A stretch of 64,000 bases of DNA from Candidatus Kaiserbacteria bacterium CG10_big_fil_rev_8_21_14_0_10_47_16 (GTDB lineage: Bacteria > Patescibacteriota > Minisyncoccia > Phycocordibacterales > UBA918). Shown here piece after piece: positions 10,159-64,000 of this stretch. Within the stretch, counting starts at the first letter, position 1. Each line of letters opens with the position of its first letter. The DNA is taken from positions 335,860 to 399,859 of the forward strand of contig PFBI01000006.1 in NCBI GenBank assembly GCA_002773395.1, written 5' to 3'. A model generated the notes under the pieces. It saw only the letters and a program-made list of their open reading frames with translations. It had not been told where the DNA came from and ran no database searches. Position numbers and translations under genes: made by a program.

Positions 10159-10175
10159 TCACTTTGCACTAAATC

Positions 10176-10212
10176 AAAAGGCCGACAGTTTCACTGTCGG
10201 CCTTTTGATTTG
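10176..10212 (+). terminator. Rho-independent terminator after secY (GGCCGACAG-TTTCA-CTGTCGGCC + TTTTGATTT)
   Basis: 9-bp GC-rich stem followed by a U-tract. Confidence 0.7.
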
Positions 10213-10222
10213 AATCTTCCAT

Positions 10223-10372
10223 GTGCGTCAGGTTTCTAATTCACCACAAGGGTACTTCTTGTTTTCTAATTCGTTACCTCATAAGAAAACAAAGTCGCGC
10301 TGCGCTCATAAGAACCTCCTGCCCAGGCTCGCGGTTTCGGCATTAGGGATAGCCGAAACATCGCTCCGCCTC
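10223..10372 (+). repeat. Intergenic repeat family copy A, with core hairpin TTTCGGC-CATTAGGGATAG-GCCGAAA at about 10335-10358
   Basis: Shares its 5' block (GTGCGTCAGGT..CTAATTC.CCACAAGGG), the CTCGCGG block, the hairpin core and ACATCGCTCCGCCTC tail with copies at 16641-16810, 62977-63101 and 63952-64000 (reverse). Confidence 0.5.
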
Positions 10373-10408
10373 TGAAACACGACATAATCTTCCGCAGGGA
10401 AGATTATG

Positions 10409-10984
10409 CTATTCGTCTTTCAGCCACTTCTTGTATCCCGCAACAACCGCATCAGTAATCGCTTCTGGGTCACTCTCTTCAGTATTCACTACAAGGTCAT
10501 ATTGCGATCCATCATACGGATTAAGTCCGTAGTGTTCTTTGTATCTGCTGCGGTGGTTCTCAATACGGGCAAGTGTTCGTTCTTTTGTCGCCTCGAGTGT
10601 TTCCATAATGTCACCACTCTCAACACGAAGCTTCGCCCCCGTGTCATTGAAAATACGTCGCGTCGCTTCATCAAGAGAAATGTCGAAGTAGACTTTAAAT
10701 GAGCTTGGGACAAAATGAAACGCGAGATGCGAGTCAACGATGATATTGTTTTCCTCAGCCTCAATGCGTTCGAGTTCAGCATCGATGCGCATTTCAAGCG
10801 CTTTGTCTTTTGCAACAATTTCATTCATCTCTTGCAGCGTGATACCGCGCTCCTTCGCAAGATGGCGTGTAAAATTTCCTGTTGAAAATGTTTTGTACCC
10901 CAACTGTGTTGCGAGCATTTCTCGAATCGTTGATTTGCCACTTCCGGGCATCCCTCCGAGGGTAATGATTGTTCGTTTCGGCAT
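10409..10984 (-). CDS. P-loop nucleoside-monophosphate kinase, (d)CMP kinase-like
   Basis: Walker A GMPGSGKST and small size, resembling archaeal-type cytidylate kinase. It lies convergent between secY and adk. Confidence 0.6.
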   Translation of the reverse strand: MPKRTIITLGGMPGSGKSTIREMLATQLGYKTFSTGNFTRHLAKERGITLQEMNEIVAKDKALEMRIDAELERIEAEENNIIVDSHLAFHFVPSSFKVYFDISLDEATRRIFNDTGAKLRVESGDIMETLEATKERTLARIENHRSRYKEHYGLNPYDGSQYDLVVNTEESDPEAITDAVVAGYKKWLKDE

Positions 10985-11058
10985 AATGAAGATACGATAC
11001 CATATTTTCCAGCGTCTGCCGAAAAGGTTTATTTTAATGAAGATTCTGGTAGACTGGG

Positions 11059-16599: not shown

Positions 16600-16631
16600 C
16601 TCTAGAATTAACTCTAGAGTTAATTCTAGAG
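16600..16631. repeat. Perfect 32-nt palindrome CTCTAGAATTAACTCTAGAGTTAATTCTAGAG about 110 nt upstream of infC, followed by TATTTTT
   Basis: Read directly; it is self-complementary over all 32 nt. Confidence 0.5.
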
Positions 16632-16640
16632 AGTATTTTT

Positions 16641-16810
16641 GTGGCGTCAGGTCACTAATTCGCCACAAGGGACTCGGCGCAACTCACTAACTATTTTGTG
16701 GTCACAAGTTACTAAGCAAAATACGAAGCTACGCTTGTATTTTACTAAGTACTCGCGACCCCGGCTCGCCGTCTCGGCATTAGAAATAGCCGAGACATGG
16801 CTGCGCCTTG
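16641..16810 (+). repeat. Intergenic repeat family copy B, with core hairpin TCTCGGC-CATTAGAAATAG-GCCGAGA at about 16772-16795
   Basis: See copy A. Its stem differs from A by a compensatory pair (T-A to C-G). Confidence 0.5.
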
Positions 16811-16849
16811 CACAGCAGCCGGAAGCAAAGCCTTTTGCTTCCTATACGA

Positions 16850-16890
16850 AAAGCCCTCGGTTTTAAAACCGAGGGCTTTTCGTATGCTGC
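16850..16890. terminator. Bidirectional palindromic terminator (AAAAGCCCTCGGTTTTAAAACCGAGGGCTTTT) next to tRNA-Arg
   Basis: Perfect palindrome with A- and T-runs on both sides. Confidence 0.55.
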
Positions 16891-16892
16891 TG

Positions 16893-16964
16893 TGCACCCG
16901 CCAGGACTCGAACCCAGAATAACTGATCCGAAGTCAGTTGTGATATCCATTTCACTACGGGTGC
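16893..16964 (-). tRNA. tRNA-Arg (anticodon UCG)
   Basis: Reverse complement folds as acceptor GCACCCG/CGGGTGC, anticodon stem ACTGA/TCAGT, loop CTTCGGA giving TCG, T-arm GGGTTCGAGTCCTGG, discriminator A. Confidence 0.75.
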
Positions 16965-18536: not shown

Positions 18537-18574
18537 TATGTATATAAACCTACGCTTGGCACTGAGATAGAAAA

Positions 18575-18649
18575 AAGCCCGCAGGGTTCGAAGGTCGAAT
18601 GGAATGTCCTTTACATGTCCTTTATTCGATTCCCGAACCCTGCGGGCTT
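18575..18649. repeat. Long perfect 16-bp stem (AAGCCCGCAGGGTTCG / CGAACCCTGCGGGCTT) enclosing a roughly 43-nt loop with tandem TGTCCTTTAC / TGTCCTTTAT copies
   Basis: Read directly; A- and T-runs flank the stem. Confidence 0.5.
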
Positions 18650-19008
18650 ATTTATGGGTGATCTACATAAGTATGTATTACTTATTTTTTGGCACGAGAT
18701 GTGCTGAATGAACTGTGAGTCGACGCGGGACGGAGTCCCTATAGGCCGAAGCGCATTGTGGCTCCGTCCGTGGGGTGGCGACTCATACTTTTTAGATGAT
18801 ACATATGTGAACCATCTAATAGTGGGATGTGAGTTATTTTGGAGGTTAACTCAATATTTTTGAACGAACTGTTTAGGGGGACATCCCCGCCTGCCCTCTC
18901 TGGGCCTGCGTATATAGTATGTCCTTTACAACAACGCGTAAAGGACAATCGTGTGCATAACTGTGTATAACATGTCCTTTATAAAAGACATGTCTTTTTG
19001 TGGCCTAT

Positions 19009-20599: not shown

Positions 20600-21523
20600 T
20601 TAGTTCGAGTGGAACTTTTTATGCACTTCTCGGAGGTGTTTGTCGGTTACGTGTGTATATATCTGTGTTGTCGCAATATTTGCATGCCCCAACAGCGCTT
20701 GCACAGAGCGCAGGTCGGCGCCGTTTGAGAGGAGGTCTGTCGCAAAACTGTGACGGATAACGTGCGGCGTTACCTTGCGGGTAATTCCTGCAATAGTGGC
20801 GTACCGTTTAATGATGCGCTGTACGCTTCGTGGTGTCAGTCGTAAATCTTTATTGTCTTTTTGTGTCATCTTTGCGTTCTTCCCATACTGAATAAAGAGT
20901 GCGTCATCCATATCCTTTCGTGACTTCACGTATTCACGAATTGACTGTTTTGCTTTGTCAGAGAGAAAGACCACGCGAATTTTATCACCCTTCCCGCGTA
21001 TAGAGAACTCATCACGTGAGAGATCAACATCTTCAATAGAGAGGCCGCAGAGCTCCGAGACGCGGAGCCCGGTTGAAAACAAGAGCTCAAGAATGGCTTT
21101 ATCGCGCAGTCCTTGCTCGGTAGCACGATCGGGCGCATTCATAAGACGGCTGAGTTCTGCAGGAGAAATAAGGTCGAGTGACCGTTCAGGAACCTTCGCC
21201 AACTCAATACGTTCTGGATCGAGCGAGGAAATGTTCCGTTTTCGGAGATATTTCAGAAAGGCGCGGAGCGCAATCAGGTAGTAATTCTGTGTTCGTCGCT
21301 TCAACGTATCGGTTGTTCTTCCCGTTTTTGTCCCCGGCTGACGATTGAGCCACAGGCGGTACTCACGCACCATGCTTTCAGTAACTTTTTTTGGGTCAGT
21401 TACTTTTGCGTAGTCCAAAAAACGGGTGAGGTATCGATCATAGTTTGATACGGTATGAATACTTCGTCCACGCTCAATTTCGAGGTATTCCAAAAATTGT
21501 TGTTTTGCTTCCGCGAGGTTCAT
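20600..21523 (-). CDS. Tyrosine recombinase XerC/XerD family
   Basis: C-terminal catalytic R...HxxR...Y signature (HVIRHSFAT...LGHANIATTQIYTHV). The likely start is the MNLAEAK Met, since the track ORF extends 30 nt further. Confidence 0.85.
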   Translation of the reverse strand: MNLAEAKQQFLEYLEIERGRSIHTVSNYDRYLTRFLDYAKVTDPKKVTESMVREYRLWLNRQPGTKTGRTTDTLKRRTQNYYLIALRAFLKYLRKRNISSLDPERIELAKVPERSLDLISPAELSRLMNAPDRATEQGLRDKAILELLFSTGLRVSELCGLSIEDVDLSRDEFSIRGKGDKIRVVFLSDKAKQSIREYVKSRKDMDDALFIQYGKNAKMTQKDNKDLRLTPRSVQRIIKRYATIAGITRKVTPHVIRHSFATDLLSNGADLRSVQALLGHANIATTQIYTHVTDKHLREVHKKFHSN

Positions 21524-21613
21524 ATATAGCAGTATTGTAGCACTCCATTCCACAGCAACTGCACCGCTGCACTCGCTGTGTAACGTATACTATATATGTA
21601 ACAAACACACGTC

Positions 21614-33518: not shown

Positions 33519-34283
33519 TTATATTTGTTTTTCAAGTTCTTCTGGGAGCACATGTGGATGCCGTTTCCGAACGACGTACTCTTGTGCAATACCGAAGATG
33601 TTACTAACTGCGAAGTAGAGAGCTATAGCTGCTGAGATTGTATACCCAATCACAAAGATAATGATTGGCATACCGTACTTCATTTGTATCTGCATACTGC
33701 GACTGAAATCATCTTTGAAGTTTGGTGTCGCATCTTTTTCGCGAGGTTTCAGTGGTGGGAGTGACATCTTCATAAGGACGTACTGTGAGAGACCTGCGAT
33801 GAGCGCGATCGGGAAACTCTTTGCAGCCATATCAACAGCACCGAGAAAGAGCATCGATGCTGTTTCTGGGTTTGGAATAAAACTATAAAGGATTGCGGTG
33901 TTGATTTCAGGCAAGTGTACGCCTCCACCACGTGCTACTGAGAAGTAGAGCGCAATAATGATTGGGATTTGGATAAACAGAAGGAGAATACTTGAGAAAG
34001 GATTTACGCCCGCTTTCTTGTAAAGCTCCATCATGTGCTTCGCCAGTTCTTCGCGCTTATCTTTGTACTTCTCTTGTATCCGTTTGAGTTCCGGTTCAAT
34101 AAGTCTCATTGCACGCTGTGTATGCGCAGCCTTCATTGAGAGAGGGAGGAGTACCGTCTTTACCACAATAGTGGTGAAGACAATCGCAAGTCCTATATCT
34201 CCTCCGGGTACGACGTCAATAAAAAAGACAAGGATGTTATATACAGGATCAAAGAATATGGTGTGCCAAAGATTTAAAAACAT
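33519..34283 (-). CDS. yidC: Membrane protein insertase YidC (short form)
   Basis: YidC/Oxa1 core with 5 TM helices, downstream of rnpA as in most bacteria. Confidence 0.85.
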   Translation of the reverse strand: MFLNLWHTIFFDPVYNILVFFIDVVPGGDIGLAIVFTTIVVKTVLLPLSMKAAHTQRAMRLIEPELKRIQEKYKDKREELAKHMMELYKKAGVNPFSSILLLFIQIPIIIALYFSVARGGGVHLPEINTAILYSFIPNPETASMLFLGAVDMAAKSFPIALIAGLSQYVLMKMSLPPLKPREKDATPNFKDDFSRSMQIQMKYGMPIIIFVIGYTISAAIALYFAVSNIFGIAQEYVVRKRHPHVLPEELEKQI

Positions 34284-34295
34284 AAGGTCTACAGT

Positions 34296-34628
34296 CTATC
34301 GTGTATTCTGTATTCTTCCAACCGCAGCAGACACCGCATGACTGAGATCCTCATACGAAGCGCCAACTGCATCCTTCTTTAAAAGAATAATGCAGACACC
34401 GGTGCGTGCCTGTGCTCGCGCGAGGCGACGCAAGATGTCATACACCTGCCGCCTGATTTTGTTCCGCTTTACCGCAGACTTAAGTATCTTCTTTGGTACT
34501 ACAACTGCACCATGGAATGCATTGTGCGGGGCACACACAAGGGTAAAGAGGGGAGTGTGGAGGCGTTTCCCCGACGCAAAAAAGCGATCAAAATCGCTTT
34601 TTGTGAGACGTTCAGTCTTCGCGAGCAT
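34296..34628 (-). CDS. rnpA: Ribonuclease P protein component
   Basis: A 110-aa basic protein with the RNR motif region (KRNKIRRQ), located between rpmH and yidC. Confidence 0.8.
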   Translation of the reverse strand: MLAKTERLTKSDFDRFFASGKRLHTPLFTLVCAPHNAFHGAVVVPKKILKSAVKRNKIRRQVYDILRRLARAQARTGVCIILLKKDAVGASYEDLSHAVSAAVGRIQNTR

Positions 34629-34636
34629 GTGTATTA

Positions 34637-34774
34637 TTATACACTGAGTTTTGCTCGTCCTTTTCGTCTACGTGACTGGAGGATTTTTGACCCTGACTTC
34701 GTGCCGCTTCGCACAAGGAAACCGTGCGTTGTTGCGCGTTTTCGTTTCTTTGGCTGATACGTTCGTTTTGGCAT
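34637..34774 (-). CDS. rpmH: 50S ribosomal protein L34
   Basis: Manual translation gives [45 protein letters not shown] (45 aa), a canonical L34. It is not in the ORF track because it is under 60 aa. Confidence 0.8.
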
Positions 34775-35012
34775 ACTGGTTCGTTATGTGAGAGTGCACT
34801 GTACACCATATAATAAACAAAATCAAGATACTCACCAGCCCTCCACTCTTTGACTTTTTAAGTCATTGACAGTTACCGCAATTTAGAGCTCTCCACAGGT
34901 TGTACACAGGTAGACAAACAATATCCCCACAAACACTGCGTATTTGTGGAAAACGTTTACACATCTTGAGAGACCGGTATAATGCTTTCTATCGCTTGAA
35001 TGTTCTATCTCT

Positions 35013-36395
35013 ATGGATTCACTTACACAATCATCTCGCAGTATCGTTCAGACACAGCAAATTGATGTTAAGCAGCTCTGGGACGACACTCTCGTCCAGA
35101 TTGAGCTTTCCATTACCGCTGCCAACTTCAAAACATGGTTTCGTGACACACATATTGTGTCTCTCGAGGACGGAACAGTGACCCTTGGCGTCCCCAGTGT
35201 CTTTGTGCGCGACTGGCTTGCTGATAAGTTCCAATCGCTCATCTTGAAAACCCTCCGTGACCTCACTCCACACGTTCGAAGTATCGAATACGCGGTGGTG
35301 CAACGCTCAAGTAAGAAGTTTGAGTCAAGTAAGAAGCAAACAGTAAACGCAACCCTGCCCCTTGAGGAGTACTACATCAACAAGAACGACAACCTCAACC
35401 CGAAGTATCTTTTCGAAACGTTTGTTGTCGGCCCATTCAACGAACTTGCGCATGCTGCTGCAAAAGCCGTGTGTGAAAAGCCGGGGATTGTGTACAACCC
35501 ACTCTTTATTTATGGAAAAACAGGCCACGGGAAGACACACCTTATCCAAGCGGTAGGGAACCAACTAAAACGAAATGGCCGAAGTGTGTTCTATGTCACC
35601 AGTGAGCGGTTTGCGGTGGATTATATGAACTCTCTCCAGAGTGGTACCGCAAATAACTTCAAAAATAAGTACCGCCAGTACGATGTGCTTATCATGGACG
35701 ACGTGCAGTTCCTCTCAAGTAAGGAAAAGACGCAGGAAGAACTCTTCCACCTCTTCAACGCAATGCACGACAACAACAAACAGATTGTGTTCTCAAGTGA
35801 TACGCACCCAGCACTACTCTCAGGGCTCCAGGAACGTCTCCAGTCACGTTTTGCACAAGGAATGATTGTAGACATCCCGCAGCCTGACAGTGAGTCTCGT
35901 GCGTCGATTATTCAATCAAAGACTGCACGCAGTAATATCACGCTTGAGAATGACGTTATCACCTTCCTTGCGACGACTATTGAGGGGAACATCCGGGAGC
36001 TTGAGGGTGCGCTCAACATTGTAATGTGCCAAACACAGGTGACTGGACGAACACTTTCACTCGATGAGGTTGTCGCGCTCATGAAAAACAGCGCGCGCCC
36101 ACGACGATCACTCGCGGTATCTGATGTTGTTGATAAAGTCGCACGATACTTTGATGTCGAACCATCTAGTATCTACGAAAAAACGCGGCGAAAGGAGATT
36201 GTGAAGCCTCGACAGCTCATTATGTACATTCTCCGAGAAGATTTTGCGGTCTCATACCCATCTATCGGCCAAAAGCTTGGTGGGCGTGACCACACAACCG
36301 TCATCCACTCATGTGAAAAGATTAAGCGTGAGGTGTTGGAAGGGAATGATGATTTGGTAGAAGAAATTGCTCAAATTCGAGCGCTTCTCCAATAA
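35013..36395 (+). CDS. dnaA: Chromosomal replication initiator protein DnaA
   Basis: AAA+ Walker A GKTGHGKTHL, sensor motifs and a C-terminal DnaA-box-binding HTH. Confidence 0.95.
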   Translation: MDSLTQSSRSIVQTQQIDVKQLWDDTLVQIELSITAANFKTWFRDTHIVSLEDGTVTLGVPSVFVRDWLADKFQSLILKTLRDLTPHVRSIEYAVVQRSSKKFESSKKQTVNATLPLEEYYINKNDNLNPKYLFETFVVGPFNELAHAAAKAVCEKPGIVYNPLFIYGKTGHGKTHLIQAVGNQLKRNGRSVFYVTSERFAVDYMNSLQSGTANNFKNKYRQYDVLIMDDVQFLSSKEKTQEELFHLFNAMHDNNKQIVFSSDTHPALLSGLQERLQSRFAQGMIVDIPQPDSESRASIIQSKTARSNITLENDVITFLATTIEGNIRELEGALNIVMCQTQVTGRTLSLDEVVALMKNSARPRRSLAVSDVVDKVARYFDVEPSSIYEKTRRKEIVKPRQLIMYILREDFAVSYPSIGQKLGGRDHTTVIHSCEKIKREVLEGNDDLVEEIAQIRALLQ

Positions 36396-36422
36396 AAACA
36401 GCGTGTCTACGCTGTTTTTATA

Positions 36423-36714
36423 AGCCCTCGAAACCCCTGTGTACTACCTGTGAATATCGATGGTAAAATCACTGTGGAAGACTCGGTATGAATGTGTGTA
36501 TAAACGACAAATAATTTACACTTATGCACACATATACACCGACAGCCCAAATAGGTAGAGTATATGCACACCAATGTGAGGGTGAGTACACAGTTTTTCT
36601 TTCAGAGTGTTGATGAGATAAAGGTGAAGGTATACGGTAAAATTGGTTTATACACCTATCCACACTCCTAATAGGGAATAGTGGTTTTAGAAAAAATAAA
36701 TAATAAGAACAGTT
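36423..36714. other. Putative oriC segment with DnaA-box-like 9-mers and an AT-rich unwinding element between dnaA and dnaN
   Basis: TTATNCACA-like sites are visible (TGTGTATAA, TTATGCACA, TTATACACC, TATCCACAC, TTATGCACA at the dnaN start), along with an AT-rich run TTTTAGAAAAAATAAATAATAAGAA. More boxes (TATCCCCACA, TTTTCCACAAA) lie between rpmH and dnaA. Confidence 0.5.
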
Positions 36715-37803
36715 ATGCACATCACGGTCGACCATATAAAACTCCAAAATCTTCTCGAAAGAGTTGCACGAGTGAGTACAAAACACCTCACACTCCCTGC
36801 GCTCCAATGTGTACTTCTTGATGTAAAAGAAAACACCCTCACTATTCGCGCAACAAATCTAGAGATAGGTATTGAAGGCACTATTGCAGTTGATGTAAAA
36901 GAAGAGGGAACAGTGAGTGTTATTGCGCAAACGTTTTTACAAATTGTTTCACTTATTTCACAAAAAGACGTAACACTTCACACAGAAGGTGATGTGCTTA
37001 TTGTGGAGACAAAAACATCACGCACAACAATCCATACAATTACTGCACAAGATTTCCCTCATATCCCAAAAGTGGAAGGGAAAGGACAGGTTATTAAAGG
37101 AACTATTTTTGCAAATGCAGTAAAGACGGCAGCGTTTGCTGCGTCACAGTCGTCTATTAAGCCAGAACTCGGCTCAGTGTATGTATTTCAAAAGAAGGAA
37201 CACACACTTACCTGTGTTGCGACAGACTCCTTCCGATTGGTAGAAAAAACAGTTTCCCAACAAAATGTTGTTCTTGAAGAGGGAATACTTATTCCCGCGA
37301 AGAATGCACTTGAACTCGCGCGACTCTGTGATTCCCAAGATGACGACCCAATGTTGTACATAACAGAGAATCAATGTGCGTTGCAGTTTGAGAACATCTA
37401 TATCACATCACGGCTTACGTCAGGAACCTTCCCTGACTACGCTCAGATCATTCCTAAGGAGTTTGTGAGCCATAGTACACTCCTTACCCAAGACCTGCAG
37501 AATGCGCTCAAGAAGACGAGTATATTCCTTAATAAGTTCATGCAGCTTACGATCGCGGCGTCAGCGCAAAATCTCACCCTTACCTCAAAAGGTGATGTAG
37601 GGACAACAACTGAGAAAACACCCGCAAGTCTTGAGGGGGATGAAATCTCCTTAAACTTCAACCAACGATATATCGCAGATATTTTAGGGTACATCACCGA
37701 CGAAAGTATAACGATTCACTTTGCAGGGACGGGGCGACCGATCATTATTGAAAGTGTGCACGATAAGTCACTCCGGTATTTGGTAATGCCAATGAATAAG
37801 TAG
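36715..37803 (+). CDS. dnaN: DNA polymerase III beta sliding clamp
   Basis: Three-domain beta-clamp length and sequence. Position after dnaA. Confidence 0.9.
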   Translation: MHITVDHIKLQNLLERVARVSTKHLTLPALQCVLLDVKENTLTIRATNLEIGIEGTIAVDVKEEGTVSVIAQTFLQIVSLISQKDVTLHTEGDVLIVETKTSRTTIHTITAQDFPHIPKVEGKGQVIKGTIFANAVKTAAFAASQSSIKPELGSVYVFQKKEHTLTCVATDSFRLVEKTVSQQNVVLEEGILIPAKNALELARLCDSQDDDPMLYITENQCALQFENIYITSRLTSGTFPDYAQIIPKEFVSHSTLLTQDLQNALKKTSIFLNKFMQLTIAASAQNLTLTSKGDVGTTTEKTPASLEGDEISLNFNQRYIADILGYITDESITIHFAGTGRPIIIESVHDKSLRYLVMPMNK

Positions 37804-37817
37804 TAGCTTCAGGTTAT

Positions 37818-38102
37818 ATGCGAGGAGGTGGAATCAAAAAAGTAGCCGATCTCTTTGAGACGTATCGGACACGGCTTAAAGCGCCGCAGAAAACTGTCAT
37901 AAACACCTTTACAGAGGTTGTGAGTGACGTGTGCGGCTTTTCTCTGCGTACGAGTGACGTTTCCTACACACCGTCCTCAAAAACACTCTCGCTTAAAGCA
38001 GCGGGGCCTCTCAAAACAGAGATTCTACTGCGCAAACAAGAACTCCTTATTCATATGAAGGGACGCCTTGGTGCATCGAGTGCACCAAATGAGATTATTT
38101 AG
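37818..38102 (+). CDS. Small DUF721/DciA-like protein (tentative)
   Basis: A 94 aa ORF immediately downstream of dnaN. Its C-terminal LSLKAAGPLKTEILLRKQELL pattern resembles DUF721. Context and weak similarity only. Confidence 0.35.
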   Translation: MRGGGIKKVADLFETYRTRLKAPQKTVINTFTEVVSDVCGFSLRTSDVSYTPSSKTLSLKAAGPLKTEILLRKQELLIHMKGRLGASSAPNEII

Positions 38103-51263: not shown

Positions 51264-51336
51264 CCGCCCATAGCTCAGTTGGTAGAGCAGCTCCCTTTTA
51301 AGGAGAAGGTCCTAGGTTCGAGCCCTAGTGGGCGGA
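51264..51336 (+). tRNA. tRNA-Lys (anticodon UUU)
   Basis: Acceptor CCGCCCA/TGGGCGG, D-arm GCTC-AGTTGGTA-GAGC, anticodon loop CTTTTAA giving TTT, T-arm CTAGG-TTCGAGC-CCTAG, discriminator A. Confidence 0.8.
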
Positions 51337-51342
51337 CTCGAG

Positions 51343-51383
51343 TAAAAGAAAACATCAGTCTTAAAGGCTGATGTTTTCTTTTA
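51343..51383. terminator. Bidirectional terminator after tRNA-Lys (GAAAACATCAG-TCTTAAAGG-CTGATGTTTTC)
   Basis: 11-bp stem with flanking A and T runs. Confidence 0.6.
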
Positions 51384-51534
51384 GTACACAAACTGCTTTG
51401 TGTACGACCCGAGTCCGAACCGGAATCATGCCGGAGGCAGATGAGGTGGGGTCGCAGGCCTGACGAAGGAAGGACCTGTGACGACAAAGTTATTCGTGAA
51501 CTAGATTTGGAAGCCAATCCTGTGACGACAAACA

Positions 51535-62669: not shown

Positions 62670-62976
62670 TGTGGAATTCTGCCACGTTAGTGTGCGGCAC
62701 TTGTTTCGTTGGTTCGGGGATCGACCCCCTTTCGAAGCGCTTCCGCTACACGGATTCTCTCTTCGCATGCGGCACATCCTTCGGCCTTGGCTTTGACGCG
62801 AGCTCCGCGGTCGAGCCCATTATACGAGGTAGAGATTTCTTTGTCTGTGATGCAGACGTGTGGGGCAGTGTTCCTGTCCATGAGGACACCTTTCTTTTGT
62901 GCAGGTCTCTTGTTTATAACTTTGAGTAGAGAGAGAAAGTAACAAAACCGGCGCATATGCACCGGATTTGATTGTT

Positions 62977-63101
62977 GCGGAGGGAGTGAGATTCGGCGTC
63001 CAACTCTAACTCACTACGTTCGTAAGAGTTACCTGCCCGGACTCGCGGGCTCGCGACATTAGGAATAGTCGCTCGCATCGCTCGTCTTTCGAATCTCACT
63101 C
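62977..63101 (+). repeat. Intergenic repeat family copy C, bounded by 12-nt inverted repeats GAGTGAGATTCG / CGAATCTCACTC that copy the tRNA-Ser T-arm and 3' end. The left boundary reproduces 19 nt of the tRNA-Ser 3' end.
   Basis: GCGGAGGGAGTGAGATTCG at 62977-62995 is identical to the plus-strand sequence of the tRNA-Ser 3' end at 63147-63165. TTCGAATCTCACTC at 63088-63101 is its inverse. The core hairpin GCGAC-CATTAGGAATAG-GTCGC is at about 63053-63072. Confidence 0.5.
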
Positions 63102-63107
63102 TCAATA

Positions 63108-63142
63108 AATAAAAACATCTGAAAGAATTCAGATGTTTTTAT
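63108..63142. terminator. Bidirectional terminator (AAAAACATCTGAA-AGAA-TTCAGATGTTTTT) downstream of tRNA-Ser
   Basis: Near-perfect palindrome flanked by A and T runs. Confidence 0.55.
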
Positions 63143-63147
63143 TCAAG

Positions 63148-63234
63148 CGGAGGGAGTGAGATTCGAACTCACGGTCCGGTTTCCCAGACTCCTGTTTTCA
63201 AGACAGGTGCAATCGACCACTCTGCCATCCCTCC
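63148..63234 (-). tRNA. tRNA-Ser (anticodon UGA), class II with a long variable arm
   Basis: Reverse complement GGAGGGATGGCAGAGTGGTCGATTGCACCTGTCTTGAAAACAGG...GTGAGTTCGAATCTCACTCCCTCCG. The anticodon loop CTTGAAA gives TGA. Confidence 0.8.
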
Positions 63235-63840: not shown

Positions 63841-63912
63841 GCCTTCATAGTTTAATGGATAGAACGCAGGTTTGCGGTATCTGTAATCCAGGTTCGATTC
63901 CTGGTGAGGGCA
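63841..63912 (+). tRNA. tRNA, probably Arg (anticodon read as GCG; assignment tentative)
   Basis: Acceptor GCCTTCA/TGAGGGC with one G-U, D-arm GTTT-AATGGATA-GAAC, anticodon stem CAGGT/ATCTG with loop TTGCGGT, T-arm CCAGG-TTCGATT-CCTGG, discriminator A. The GCG anticodon is unusual, so stem registration should be checked. Confidence 0.55.
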
Positions 63913-63922
63913 CAAACGCGCG

Positions 63923-63951
63923 AAAAAGACCTCCCCTGCGGGAGGTCTTTA
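63923..63951 (+). terminator. Rho-independent terminator after the tRNA (GACCTCCC-CTGC-GGGAGGTC + TTT)
   Basis: 8-bp GC-rich stem and a U-run. Confidence 0.6.
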
Positions 63952-64000
63952 GCGTTTGTGAGCCGGAGCGATGTTTCGGCTATTCCTAATGCCGAAACCG
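63952..64000 (-). repeat. Intergenic repeat family copy D (reverse orientation), truncated by the window end. Core hairpin TTTCGGC-CATTAGGAATAG-GCCGAAA at about 63975-63998.
   Basis: The reverse complement CGGTTTCGGCATTAGGAATAGCCGAAACATCGCTCCGGCTCAC matches copy A almost exactly. Confidence 0.5.

Follow-up and report, generated by a model that had tools for sequence, protein, structure and literature searches.

Four repeats in the window, the whole 64-kb stretch of DNA analysed here, are members of a previously uncatalogued family of structured intergenic units. The family has at least 80 copies across Patescibacteria (CPR) MAGs and metagenomes, spanning class-level lineages. Its members share a covarying core whose fold is under strong selection, and they lie behind gene 3' ends, bordered by an inverted copy and a direct repeat of the gene end. 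The explanation put forward here, on which belief and doubt are evenly balanced, is that the family is a gene-less integrative mini-element that targets gene 3' ends and whose fold serves its own propagation.

Patescibacteria have, to our knowledge, very small genomes, few recognised mobile elements and few known non-coding RNAs. The present family, with more than 80 examples, strong covariation and class-level spread, is absent from Rfam 15 and from the searched literature. If it is mobile, gene-less units of 0.2 kb home to the 3' ends of tRNA, tmRNA and core genes while repairing them, which would point to recombination through a guide or a folded strand. Should it instead be an RNA, a new structured RNA, present in many copies, would follow the most highly expressed genes. 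The family accounts for odd tRNA 3'-end fragments, long palindromes and spurious ORFs that flank CPR tRNA genes, and the covariance model can be used to annotate these elements.

Distribution of the family

A pattern scan of a genome collection gave 60 loci, about 28 of them with a flanking hairpin. All of the hairpin-bearing loci were from Saccharibacteria, Kaiserbacteria, Paceibacteria, Parcubacteria or other Patescibacteria MAGs. A metagenome scan added 44 loci. Covariance-model matches numbered 33 in the genome set and 49 in the metagenome set. Genomic context covered the 64 kb of this genome and loci of 8-14 kb from other genomes.

When the window was scanned against Rfam 15 at gathering thresholds, five tRNAs passed and nothing else. 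E-value scans of the three complete copies returned noise from terminator hairpins, all far under the gathering scores. An earlier note on this DNA had called the repeats novel and proposed a covariance scan of Rfam; novelty holds against Rfam 15, no family of which matched. Phage and plasmid records gave no match by blastn in distant mode, three pattern scans of 2.9 million viral contigs gave two chance matches, both lacking the hairpin, and literature searched by topic and by motif strings contained nothing relevant.

A covarying two-armed core

The core is 95-115 nt long and forms a two-armed junction, with Pa-J-P2 as one arm and P3 as the other. Paired cells amounted to 87.1% and 86.6% in two sequence sets, compared with 29-40% when the partners were slid. 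Double compensatory changes were found at 27/28 and 26/28 pairs, and none of 500 shuffles reached the observed values. The second alignment is an independent set and replicates the covariation of the first. Selection on structure, which the earlier note had argued from a single hairpin, thus extends well beyond it. Conservation extends to unpaired nucleotides: a bulged A, the tandem G.A junction, and two loops, one of 10 nt and the apical one, GAGCGNAGYGAA.

It is the gene-sense strand that folds. Counts of G.U against A.C on this strand were 45:16 and 51:30 in the two sets, and the minimum free energy was lower on it in 24 of 25 copies. The functional strand is therefore the reverse of the one read earlier and the same as that of the neighbouring tRNA or gene. 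In the closing stem P1 the G.U bias is absent (92 vs 83). When the full unit is folded, a tRNA-like frame results, at z-scores of -4 to -9. The fold may work either as RNA or as single-stranded DNA.

Three further features were considered for the core and rejected. A pseudoknot pairing the P2 loop with the 3' strand of P3 is perfect in two loci (L012, L022), but on reading the sequences the loop variants are uncompensated. A canonical k-turn at the junction would need a bulge of 3 nt and the bulge is 1 nt. A small peptide could be read in the short forms, as AGGAGG-N5-ATG followed by an 8-codon ORF; the long forms put a hairpin there and the ATG is gone.

The four copies in the window

The motif CATTAGRRATAG occurs exactly four times in the window, at 10341, 16778 and 63057 on the + strand and at 63980 on the - strand. 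Shuffled windows had a mean of 0.65 occurrences, and none of 100 shuffles reached four. The covariance model, run on the window with filters off, matched 10279-10373, 16701-16810, 62996-63089 and 63969-64000, and the remaining matches were at noise level. Motif count and model confirm the four copies, A to D, of the earlier note. Their hairpin stems differ by compensatory changes as it described: TTTCGGC/GCCGAAA in A and D, TCTCGGC/GCCGAGA in B and GCGAC/GTCGC in C. The 12-nt loop, said to be conserved, is indeed invariant in the window, but two copies at another locus (L039) have a different loop. The tRNA genes that were said to adjoin B, C and D were found flanking all three.

Copy A, on the - strand, spans 10225..10373. 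Its core (10279-10373; a 76-bit covariance-model match) consists of Pa, the junction J, P2 and the P3 5' strand. The P2 hairpin is at 10334-10359 and an extra P3-like hairpin at 10261-10290. The 3' module CCCTTGTGGTGAATTAGAAACCTGACGC occupies 10225-10252. An upstream hairpin at 10383..10408, in - strand letters CATAATCTTCC-CTGC-GGAAGATTATG, abuts the stop codon of a cytidylate-kinase-like gene (10409-10984, - strand). This gene is reverse-oriented and breaks the usual secY-adk-map order. The segment previously taken for a 5' block of A and B (GGCGTC..CTAATTC.CCACAAGGG) is in fact a 3' module, and is probably a leftover from older copies.

Copy B, also on the - strand, is a long form with a variable hairpin within P3. 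Its core lies at 16701..16810 (65.2-bit match; fold z-score -7.9 on the - strand) and its P2 hairpin at 16771-16796. The sequence of the 3' tail (16643..16700) reads ..TTGCGCC, then GAGTCCCTTGTGGCGA, then ATTAGTGACCTGACGCC. By analogy with the arrays at loci L057 and L061, this tail may represent remnants of core 3' ends joined to a stretch resembling a tRNA 3' end. In one promoter-like site the -35 box is formed by the 3' end of copy B. The leader (16810..16895, - strand) begins with the end and flank of tRNA-Arg(tcg) (16886-16895; GCTGCTGTGC on the + strand). It continues with a palindromic terminator of 43 nt (16843-16885) and a further hairpin, P0 (16821-16842), and closes with the tRNA end and flank in inverted copy (16810-16819).

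Copy C, a short form on the - strand, lies downstream of an intact tRNA-Ser (63147-63234, - strand). Its core, which was folded, is at 62996..63089 (72.9-bit match), with the P2 hairpin at 63053-63072. The T-loop, T-stem and first acceptor bases of the tRNA recur as an inverted copy (GAGTGAGATTCGAA on the - strand; 63088..63101), which forms the 5' strand of the closing stem P1. Between this copy and the tRNA is an AT-rich hairpin with a T-run (63108..63143, - strand). On the far side of the core is a direct repeat (62977..62995, - strand), whose 19 nt are identical to the tRNA-Ser 3' end (63147-63165) from T-loop position C56. A GC-rich terminator (62948-62965) comes after this repeat.

Copy D, on the + strand, follows tRNA-Arg(gcg) (63841-63913, + strand). 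Its leader (63911..63960) is a long hairpin with a CTGC loop on the inner stem. In the outer stem the last 3 nt of the tRNA and 6 nt of flank pair with their inverted copy. The core (63959..64000) is ended by the window edge after the P2 hairpin (63973-63998) and gave partial matches of 47.2 and 34.5 bits.

It had been stated that each copy starts after a terminator. For copy A the terminator in question is the convergent secY terminator, which lies at the 3' end of the element. Each copy does have a hairpin of its own, on the opposite side, where it separates the core from the upstream gene. This genome has many terminators with long perfect stems, the secY stem being 18 bp.

A possible distant relative lies behind tRNA-Lys (51264-51337) at 51344..51482 on the + strand. 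A terminator (51344-51382) comes first, then a P0 hairpin whose loop is CTGC (51385-51404), then a core that is divergent (51416-51482). The core scored 14.9 bits (E=0.1), the best covariance-model match after the four copies, and is assigned to the family tentatively. The window also contains a gene for a Xer-type recombinase (20600-21553).

Unit anatomy and insertion at gene 3' ends

The complete unit is about 200-260 bp long and has no ORF. Its parts follow in the order gene 3' end (O), terminator-like hairpin, inverted copy of O, core and direct repeat of O. The inverted copy is complementary to the gene 3' end over 9-22 nt and is often split by a second hairpin. Of 86 matches, 34 follow a same-strand tRNA or tmRNA gene at a distance of 34-429 nt, and one is in another arrangement. 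The RNA-gene targets are tRNA-Arg (four anticodons), Ser, Val, Gly, Lys, Leu and Phe, and tmRNA; the protein-gene targets are the 3' ends of ftsZ, EF-G and dnaJ. The ftsZ and EF-G groups have the same plan, and in two loci (L085, L102) the displaced copy of the gene end retains its stop codon and terminator.

Exact inverted repeats of 9 nt or more were found in 37 of 76 copies (1 in the shuffle control), and exact direct repeats of 10 nt or more in 27 of 76 (2 in the control). The direct repeats are 17-22 nt long at tRNA genes and 25-70 nt at protein genes. Those of 17-22 nt all begin at C56: L041 (22 nt), L039 (21 nt), L014 (20 nt), window copy C (19 nt), L018 (17 nt), L054, L061, L051, L082, L073 and L112. 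The direct repeats end in the gene's own flank, CAG or CAA, never in CCA, and the cDNA of a mature tRNA was on this ground rejected as their source. The upstream tRNAs are intact according to ARAGORN.

Units can be stacked behind one tRNA, and the greater the distance from the tRNA, the more the repeat has decayed. At L061 three units behind tRNA-Val have progressively decaying repeats. At L054 the array is a tandem duplication, at L057 several 3' remnants are present, and at L070 copies of O enclose an island made up of gene segments and mini-units. The sites also turn over: tRNA-Ser and tRNA-Arg(gcg) carry different units in the window and in L018. Direct repeats, inverted copy and stacking together indicate an inserted, once-mobile unit that also has a conserved fold. 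The earlier note had set selected structure against a mobile element, an opposition that does not stand, given the 17-22-nt direct repeats of the target tRNA 3' end, the inverted copy and the stacked arrays. It had named MITE ends with target-site duplications as evidence of the latter; target duplications are present, but the ends are target-derived, differ from copy to copy and are not MITE-like. Excised forms, polymorphic empty sites and an enzyme were not observed, and it is from unit anatomy alone that we infer mobility.

About a third of the copies have no clear distal repeat (window copy A, L012, L022, L046). In L029 and L048 the inverted copy is perfectly complementary to the upstream gene end and the distal repeat has decayed. 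Retention of the one during decay of the other implies an ongoing constraint in place. At orthologous ftsZ, EF-G and dnaJ sites of different species the fold is kept by compensatory changes. The orientation of the element tracks the upstream gene and not the replication fork, and a model in which the lagging-strand template is used thus gains no support.

Clustering of the ORFs that neighbour the units gave housekeeping genes only, with no recombinase cluster. A phmmer search with the Xer recombinase of the window against 340 neighbouring ORFs from 67 loci found only its own orthologue, in L098. There is no integrase within 4-6 kb of the units. Canonical intrinsic terminators with T4-T6 runs lie between tRNA and core in most units, which argues against efficient co-transcription, and a conserved promoter within the unit was found on neither strand.

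Mobile element or RNA

As a gene-less integrative mini-element, the unit would use site-specific recombination to enter, either within the T-loop or, in protein genes, at comparable sites close to the 3' end. It would supply its own copy of the gene end, which leaves the gene intact and moves the original end to beyond the insert. Restoring the gene with the original end displaced is the behaviour of integrative elements that target tRNA genes. The recombinase would be provided in trans. The mobile form may be a folded single strand in which O pairs with the inverted copy and so rebuilds the target duplex, as in the attP of CTX phage and the attC of integrons, and the conserved core may be the part recognised by the machinery. 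Against the mini-element, a site-specific recombinase would have to accept many different targets, P1 lacks the G.U bias, about a third of the copies lack a clear distal repeat and the inverted copy is under constraint in place. The retention of the fold at orthologous sites fits a host-level function, for instance as an RNA, at least as well as it fits a selfish element. The main rival, possible though on balance somewhat improbable, is that the core is a functional non-coding RNA on the gene-sense strand, made by read-through from a strongly expressed gene and then processed. The inverted copy and distal repeat would mimic an acceptor stem and T-stem, with P0 in the place of the D and anticodon arms of a tRNA. 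Excision by RNase P and RNase Z could follow, and the insertion signature would record how an RNA gene cassette spread. The strong covariation with conserved unpaired nucleotides and the sense-strand G.U excess speak for an RNA. So do the co-orientation with a highly expressed upstream gene, the compensatory changes at orthologous ftsZ sites, the tRNA-like frame of the full unit (z -4 to -9) and the GC-rich terminator after copy C and its repeat. There is a precedent in the RtT repeats of E. coli tyrT, a processed RNA with repeat units downstream of the tRNA, each containing about 19 nt of its 3' end. Yet T4-T6 terminators separate tRNA and core in most units, neither strand has a conserved in-unit promoter, and P1 is again without G.U bias. 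In older copies decay affects the acceptor-like part of the distal repeat but not the match between inverted copy and upstream tRNA, so the tRNA-like frame is not maintained.

A new class of mobile element without a gene of its own is an unlikely but more far-reaching reading. The T-loop and acceptor end would be rebuilt as a hairpin in a folded single strand, with the two-armed fold recruiting a host recombinase; or the target-derived flanks would guide a protein encoded elsewhere. If either version is true, it would be structure-programmed homing, protein-free in cis, to the most conserved genes of minimal genomes. It is quite improbable that the units serve as recombination sites for a cassette system of integron type with tRNA T-loops as its entry site, the intervening gene segments being cassettes and the bare units empty ones. 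The order at L070 (tRNA, two genes, unit, two ORFs, unit, toxin-antitoxin pair, repeat remnant) would suit such a system, as would the reverse-oriented kinase-like gene that interrupts secY-adk-map by copy A and the fold, an imperfect palindrome whose bulges are conserved, with a variable terminal hairpin and the ends ..CGAAC / GTTCGA... However, no array adjoins an integron-type integrase, most units carry no gene, loops and junctions are sequence-conserved, unlike those of attC, and the R''/R' consensus is matched at only 6/7 positions, a match that comes solely from the T-loop being palindromic by chance. A scaffold like a guide RNA, in the style of TnpB/IscB omega RNA or IS110 bridge RNA, whose target-derived flanks direct a distantly encoded protein to intact target gene ends, is highly improbable. 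It would explain a scaffold with about 20 nt of target sequence 3' of it and the complement of that sequence 5', and also why arrays grow at the tRNA. But no TnpB, IscB or IS110-type ORF recurs near the 67 loci, the Rfam models of HEARO and IS605-associated RNAs gave no match, the scaffold has terminators upstream of it, and the genome's own intact tRNA would itself become a target. Least probable of all are passive leftovers without function, either attP arms of decayed prophages or islands, or slippage-duplicated long-stem terminators. Long perfect stems such as that of secY are common here, and the repeats and arrays do resemble integrase traces at tRNA genes. Nevertheless, 26-27 of 28 pairs covary across class-level lineages, conserved loops outlast changing stems, and viral contigs, phage and plasmid collections hold no match.

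Comparison with known systems

The closest known systems include the integrative elements that target tRNA and tmRNA genes through tyrosine integrases acting at the T-loop sublocation, together with derivatives poor in genes, such as CIMEs and the cargo-only satellites found among tycheposons. The family is like tRNA-integrating islands in that direct repeats from T-loop to 3' end flank the insert, the gene is restored with the displaced end left as a repeat, units accrete in tandem at a tRNA, and tmRNA is among the targets. Unlike these islands, the units are about 0.2 kb long and have neither an ORF nor an integrase within 4-6 kb. They also have an inverted copy of the target end and a core that covaries across class-level lineages, and they occur at ftsZ, EF-G and dnaJ ends. 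Structurally they resemble the CTX-phage attP(+), in which a folded strand rebuilds a duplex that mimics the chromosomal target. As with Xer exploiters of the CTX type, no integrase is encoded by the element and a host recombinase would be used. The target, however, is a gene 3' end and not dif, the unit is 200 nt without genes, and no evidence ties the family to Xer.

Like REP/REPIN sequences and MITEs, the units are multicopy, intergenic, hairpin-forming and placed after genes, with stems that evolve by compensatory change. Unlike MITEs, they have no conserved terminal inverted repeats; their ends derive from the local gene and differ at every target, and their duplications are 17-22 nt (tRNA genes) or 25-70 nt (protein genes) and not a fixed 2-10 bp. 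The core, a two-armed junction with conserved loops, is also unlike either. A RAYT or transposase partner was not seen in the 64-kb window, and near the other loci no non-housekeeping ORF recurred. The P2 loop has what we take to be a resemblance to the pT181 nick site, its TAGCGA string is presumably like CS-6 of ssoA origins, and the GAGC repeats recall what we assume to be the AAV Rep-binding element; blastn supported none of the three. The family differs from RtT (RF00391), with a score of 13.3 bits against a gathering threshold of 45 (E=4.9); RtT belongs to one tRNA in enterobacteria, whereas this family has many targets across a phylum. A group I intron was rejected, as the elements lie downstream of complete tRNAs and there is no Intron_gpI match. 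The tRNA introns described in Patescibacteria are in the anticodon loop only (35/36; PMC13011429).

The units share with integron attC an imperfect palindrome of about 60-140 nt, conserved unpaired bases, a variable terminal hairpin, arrays and the ends ..AAC / GTT... Like attC, they may act as a folded single strand. They differ in that the loops and junctions are sequence-conserved, the outer stem is target-gene sequence and the entry site is the tRNA T-loop; no IntI gene is nearby and most units lack an ORF. The attC boxes are R'' (RYYYAAC) and R' (GTTRRRY), with crossover at G/TT. The family ends ATCGAAC/GTTCGAT match them at 6/7 positions, with the junction at TT/CGA, and this resemblance arises because it is the T-loop sequence itself. 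The site stands after a promoter-less ORF in L070 and possibly at window copy A, and the majority of sites are directly behind tRNA genes.

Copies in the window

The window contains the motif CATTAGRRATAG at four positions (10341+, 16778+, 63057+ and 63980-), with a mean of 0.65 in shuffled sequences and none of 100 shuffles reaching four. This bears out the four repeat copies, A to D, of the earlier note, and the hairpin stems with compensatory differences listed there are present in the copies. B, C and D were also said to lie beside tRNA genes, and ARAGORN and Rfam both place tRNA-Arg(tcg) (16892-16964, -) next to copy B, tRNA-Ser(tga) (63147-63234, -) next to copy C and tRNA-Arg(gcg) (63841-63913, +) next to copy D. 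Each of these copies is downstream of its tRNA and on the tRNA strand, which is the reverse complement of the strand originally described. Copy A is downstream of a minus-strand cytidylate-kinase-like gene (10409-10984). The gene-sense strand of the copies gives the stabler RNA folds; the z-score of copy B is -7.9 on this strand versus -4.0 on the other.

Copy C starts and ends with tRNA-Ser sequence. Its 19 nt at 62977-62995 repeat the tRNA-Ser 3' end (63147-63165) without a difference, and the 14 nt of 63088-63101 match the tRNA-Ser T-loop and T-stem in inverse complement.

Other features adjoin copies A and B. At 10159-11058 the usual secY-adk-map order is broken by the reverse-oriented cytidylate-kinase-like gene with copy A behind it, and the two may have arrived jointly as one insertion. 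The 3' end of copy B forms the -35 box of a promoter-like site, CTGACG-16-TAGAAT (16623-16650, -), that faces infC (16488-15928, -), beside a 32-nt perfect palindrome, CTCTAGAATTAACTCTAGAGTTAATTCTAGAG (16600-16631). A 75-aa ORF overlapping copy B (16639-16866, +) is probably spurious.

Fold of the core

The core, the conserved folded part of 95-115 nt, was described by a covariance model, R1, built from 16 short-form copies with 95 positions and 28 pairs. Read on the gene-sense strand, it opens with Pa, a 3-bp helix whose pairs vary (AGC/GCT, GCC/GGC, ACC/GGT, GAC/GTC, GGC/GCC), followed by a junction in which GGA faces GA as tandem G.A and then by the short helix J, in which two bases bulge out. 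P2 is the hairpin of the earlier note, with a 10-nt loop UAUYYCUAAU and a C-G closing pair. In the second arm, P3, an internal loop separates the outer helix from the inner one, which carries a conserved bulged A. P3 also has an optional variable hairpin, and its apical loop approximates GAGCGNAGYGAA.

In alignments fitted to R1, and hence leaning towards the model structure, 87.1% of the cells are paired in the first set of loci and 86.6% in the metagenome set, which is independent of the construction of R1; sliding the 3' partners lowers these values to 33-40% and 29-40%. None of 500 shuffles in either set reached the observed pairing, counts that are not probabilities because the sequences are phylogenetically related. 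Both sides have changed in 27 of the 28 pairs in the first set and 26 in the metagenome set, so the pairing-preserving covariation noted earlier extends to nearly the whole core. From a plain MAFFT alignment, RNAalifold predicted Pa, J and P2 as well; 7 of 12 pairs carry double compensations. G.U pairs exceed A.C mismatches (45:16 and 51:30) and the minimum free energy is lower on the gene-sense strand in 24 of 25 copies. Therefore the folded strand is the gene-sense strand, acting either as RNA or as single-stranded DNA.

The string GAGCG-N-AGYGA(A/G) recurs as the loop of different hairpins at many loci outside the window (L041, L039, L014, L062): the P3 tip, a hairpin of a second core type, and, in L041 and L039, the hairpin that directly follows the tRNA. 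It may mark where binding or cleavage takes place. Short-form cores (e.g. 10296-10322, -, in the window) contain AGGAGG-N5-ATG opening an 8-codon ORF, MSVSELET*. The core ATG in locus L018 (6691-7155) is in frame with a downstream ruvX-like gene, and gene callers can therefore yield a falsely extended protein.

Units at tRNA and tmRNA genes

The core lies within a larger unit made partly of target sequence. The tRNA ends in a segment, O, that comprises the T-loop from C56, the T-stem 3' strand, the acceptor 3' strand and the discriminator. An intrinsic-terminator-like hairpin follows, then O in inverse complement, split by a second hairpin, P0, that often has a CUGC loop: the acceptor part comes before P0 and the T part after it. 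Next is the core, and finally O repeated directly. When the unit is folded whole as a single strand, the result is an acceptor-like stem, P0 as a side hairpin, and a stem, P1, that closes around the core; the z-scores range from -4 to -9.

Of 86 R1 matches, 34 lie 34-429 nt downstream of a same-strand tRNA or tmRNA gene (the target in L048 is a tmRNA gene) and one is in another arrangement. Exact inverted repeats of at least 9 nt were found in 37 of 76 copies (one in the shuffle control) and exact direct repeats of at least 10 nt in 27 (two in the control). The direct repeats measure 22 nt in L041, 21 in L039, 20 with one mismatch in L014, 19 in copy C and 17 in L018; about a third of the copies have no clear distal repeat. 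All repeats derived from a tRNA begin at T-loop position C56. Because the repeats run into the flank of the gene itself (CAG in L041, CAA in L061) and do not finish in CCA, they were copied from DNA, and the mature tRNA is ruled out as their source.

Units at protein genes

Clustering of the ORFs around 67 loci showed recurrent neighbours: ftsA-ftsZ, EF-G, dnaK-dnaJ, trxB and ribosomal-protein genes. The element is placed after their 3' ends on the same plan as at tRNA genes: the final 25-45 coding nt and the stop codon are followed by an inverted copy of this stretch, the core and a direct copy. The direct copy retains the stop codon and original terminator in L085 and L102, and at ftsZ loci synonymous coding differences are mirrored in the inverted copy. 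The P2 and P3 stems carry compensatory changes at protein-gene loci while the loops stay constant. In a few cases the junction sequence appears, tentatively, to resemble the T-loop (GGTG/CAGTTCC against GGTT/CGATTCC).

Arrays, other cores and turnover

Units are found stacked. Behind tRNA-Val in L061 are three units, each with its own core: one of a distant type 3 (17 bits), one of type 2, which has just a P3-like arm plus a little hairpin, and one of type 1, the core described above. All three close with a copy of the tRNA end, more decayed with distance from the tRNA. L054 shows tandem duplication (period 180 nt), extra 3' remnants are present in L057 and in window copies A and B, and L039 (3956-6489) holds four copies in 2.5 kb amid four tRNA genes, two of them with the P2 loop GACCACAAGGA in place of UAUUCCUAAU in an otherwise conserved core. 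In L070 (3593-7001, -) an island bounded by tRNA 3'-end copies runs tRNA, two genes, unit, two ORFs, unit, toxin-antitoxin pair and repeat remnant; it includes a gene for a 236-aa protein, a NUDIX gene and two small ORFs, the toxin of the pair is RelE/YoeB-like, and its two mini-units, set between gene segments, are nearly identical.

The type-2 core (L018 5551-5717, -; also L014, L039, L061 and L085) is likewise set between an inverted copy and a direct repeat, at tRNA genes and at EF-G. Its parts are a P3-like hairpin (GTTGCC, loop GAGCGAAGCGAAG, GACAAC) and a small hairpin, GTACTGAACATGTAATG; Pa and P2 are absent, and the fold z-score is -9. At a syntenic tRNA-Ser/tRNA-Arg(gcg) pair, the unit behind tRNA-Ser is type 1 in the window and type 2 in L018.

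Distribution

A search of Rfam 15, as the earlier note had proposed, found no family at the copies at gathering thresholds or at E<=10, only weak terminator-hairpin matches. The window was traced to a Patescibacteria MAG, GCA_009991995.1, and to near-identical contigs. An exact-pattern scan of one genome per species gave 60 loci. About 28 have the flanking hairpin, all in Patescibacteria (Saccharibacteria, Kaiserbacteria, Paceibacteria, Parcubacteria); the remainder are chance matches without it. A further 44 loci came from a metagenome scan. No true match to the pattern or to related ones turned up in 2.9 million viral contigs, nor did blastn find one in phage and plasmid records. R1 scored 41-107 bits at 33 places in the first set and matched 49 places in the metagenome set.

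Insertion or RNA

Insertion at gene 3' ends is marked by direct repeats from T-loop to gene end, an intact upstream gene, stacking with graded decay, and turnover, a signature that tRNA-targeting integrative elements also leave. The unit differs from these in being about 0.2 kb without any gene, and in having an inverted target copy and a core fold conserved across class-level lineages. That it is a gene-less integrative mini-element has, in our estimate, an even chance. Its active form would be single-stranded and folded so that the target duplex is rebuilt, as with CTX-phage attP and integron attC, which best accounts for the inverted copy; the core would be the recognised fold and the enzyme would be supplied in trans. 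No integrase is encoded within or beside the units, and no recombinase, transposase or reverse transcriptase recurs among the ORFs clustered around the 67 loci. The one Xer-type tyrosine recombinase of the window (20600-21553) matches XerD, XerC and XerA-like models; phmmer against 340 neighbouring ORFs found its orthologue in L098 only.

The core might instead be a processed RNA, which we consider less likely than the mini-element. Compensatory evolution at orthologous sites and constant co-orientation with highly expressed genes speak for an RNA or a host-level role, as does an inverted copy that pairs perfectly with the upstream gene end despite decay of the distal repeat (L029, L048). Simple co-transcription is opposed by the canonical terminators between tRNA and core, by the lack of a conserved promoter in the unit and by the absence of G.U bias in P1. 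The mini-element and the processed RNA are compatible if the cargo of the cassette is an RNA gene.

Other features of the window

With filters off, R1 finds in the window only the four copies and a 14.9-bit relative behind tRNA-Lys (51264-51337), the fifth-best match. This element (51344-51482, +) has a terminator, a hairpin with the CTGC loop of the other units (51385-51404) and a divergent core reading AACCGGA, GAGGTGGGGTCGCAGG and CCTGTGACG, directly after which CCTGTGACGACAAA recurs; it probably belongs, distantly, to the same superfamily. The GC skew changes from negative to positive at about 34000-38000, with a cumulative minimum near 36 kb, suggestive of a replication origin within the window. 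A palindrome of about 88 nt (18565-18652) lies downstream of the CCA-adding-enzyme gene; R1 does not match it, and its arms carry the T-loop-like strings GGGTTCGAAGGTCGAATGG and TTCGATTCCCGAACCC.
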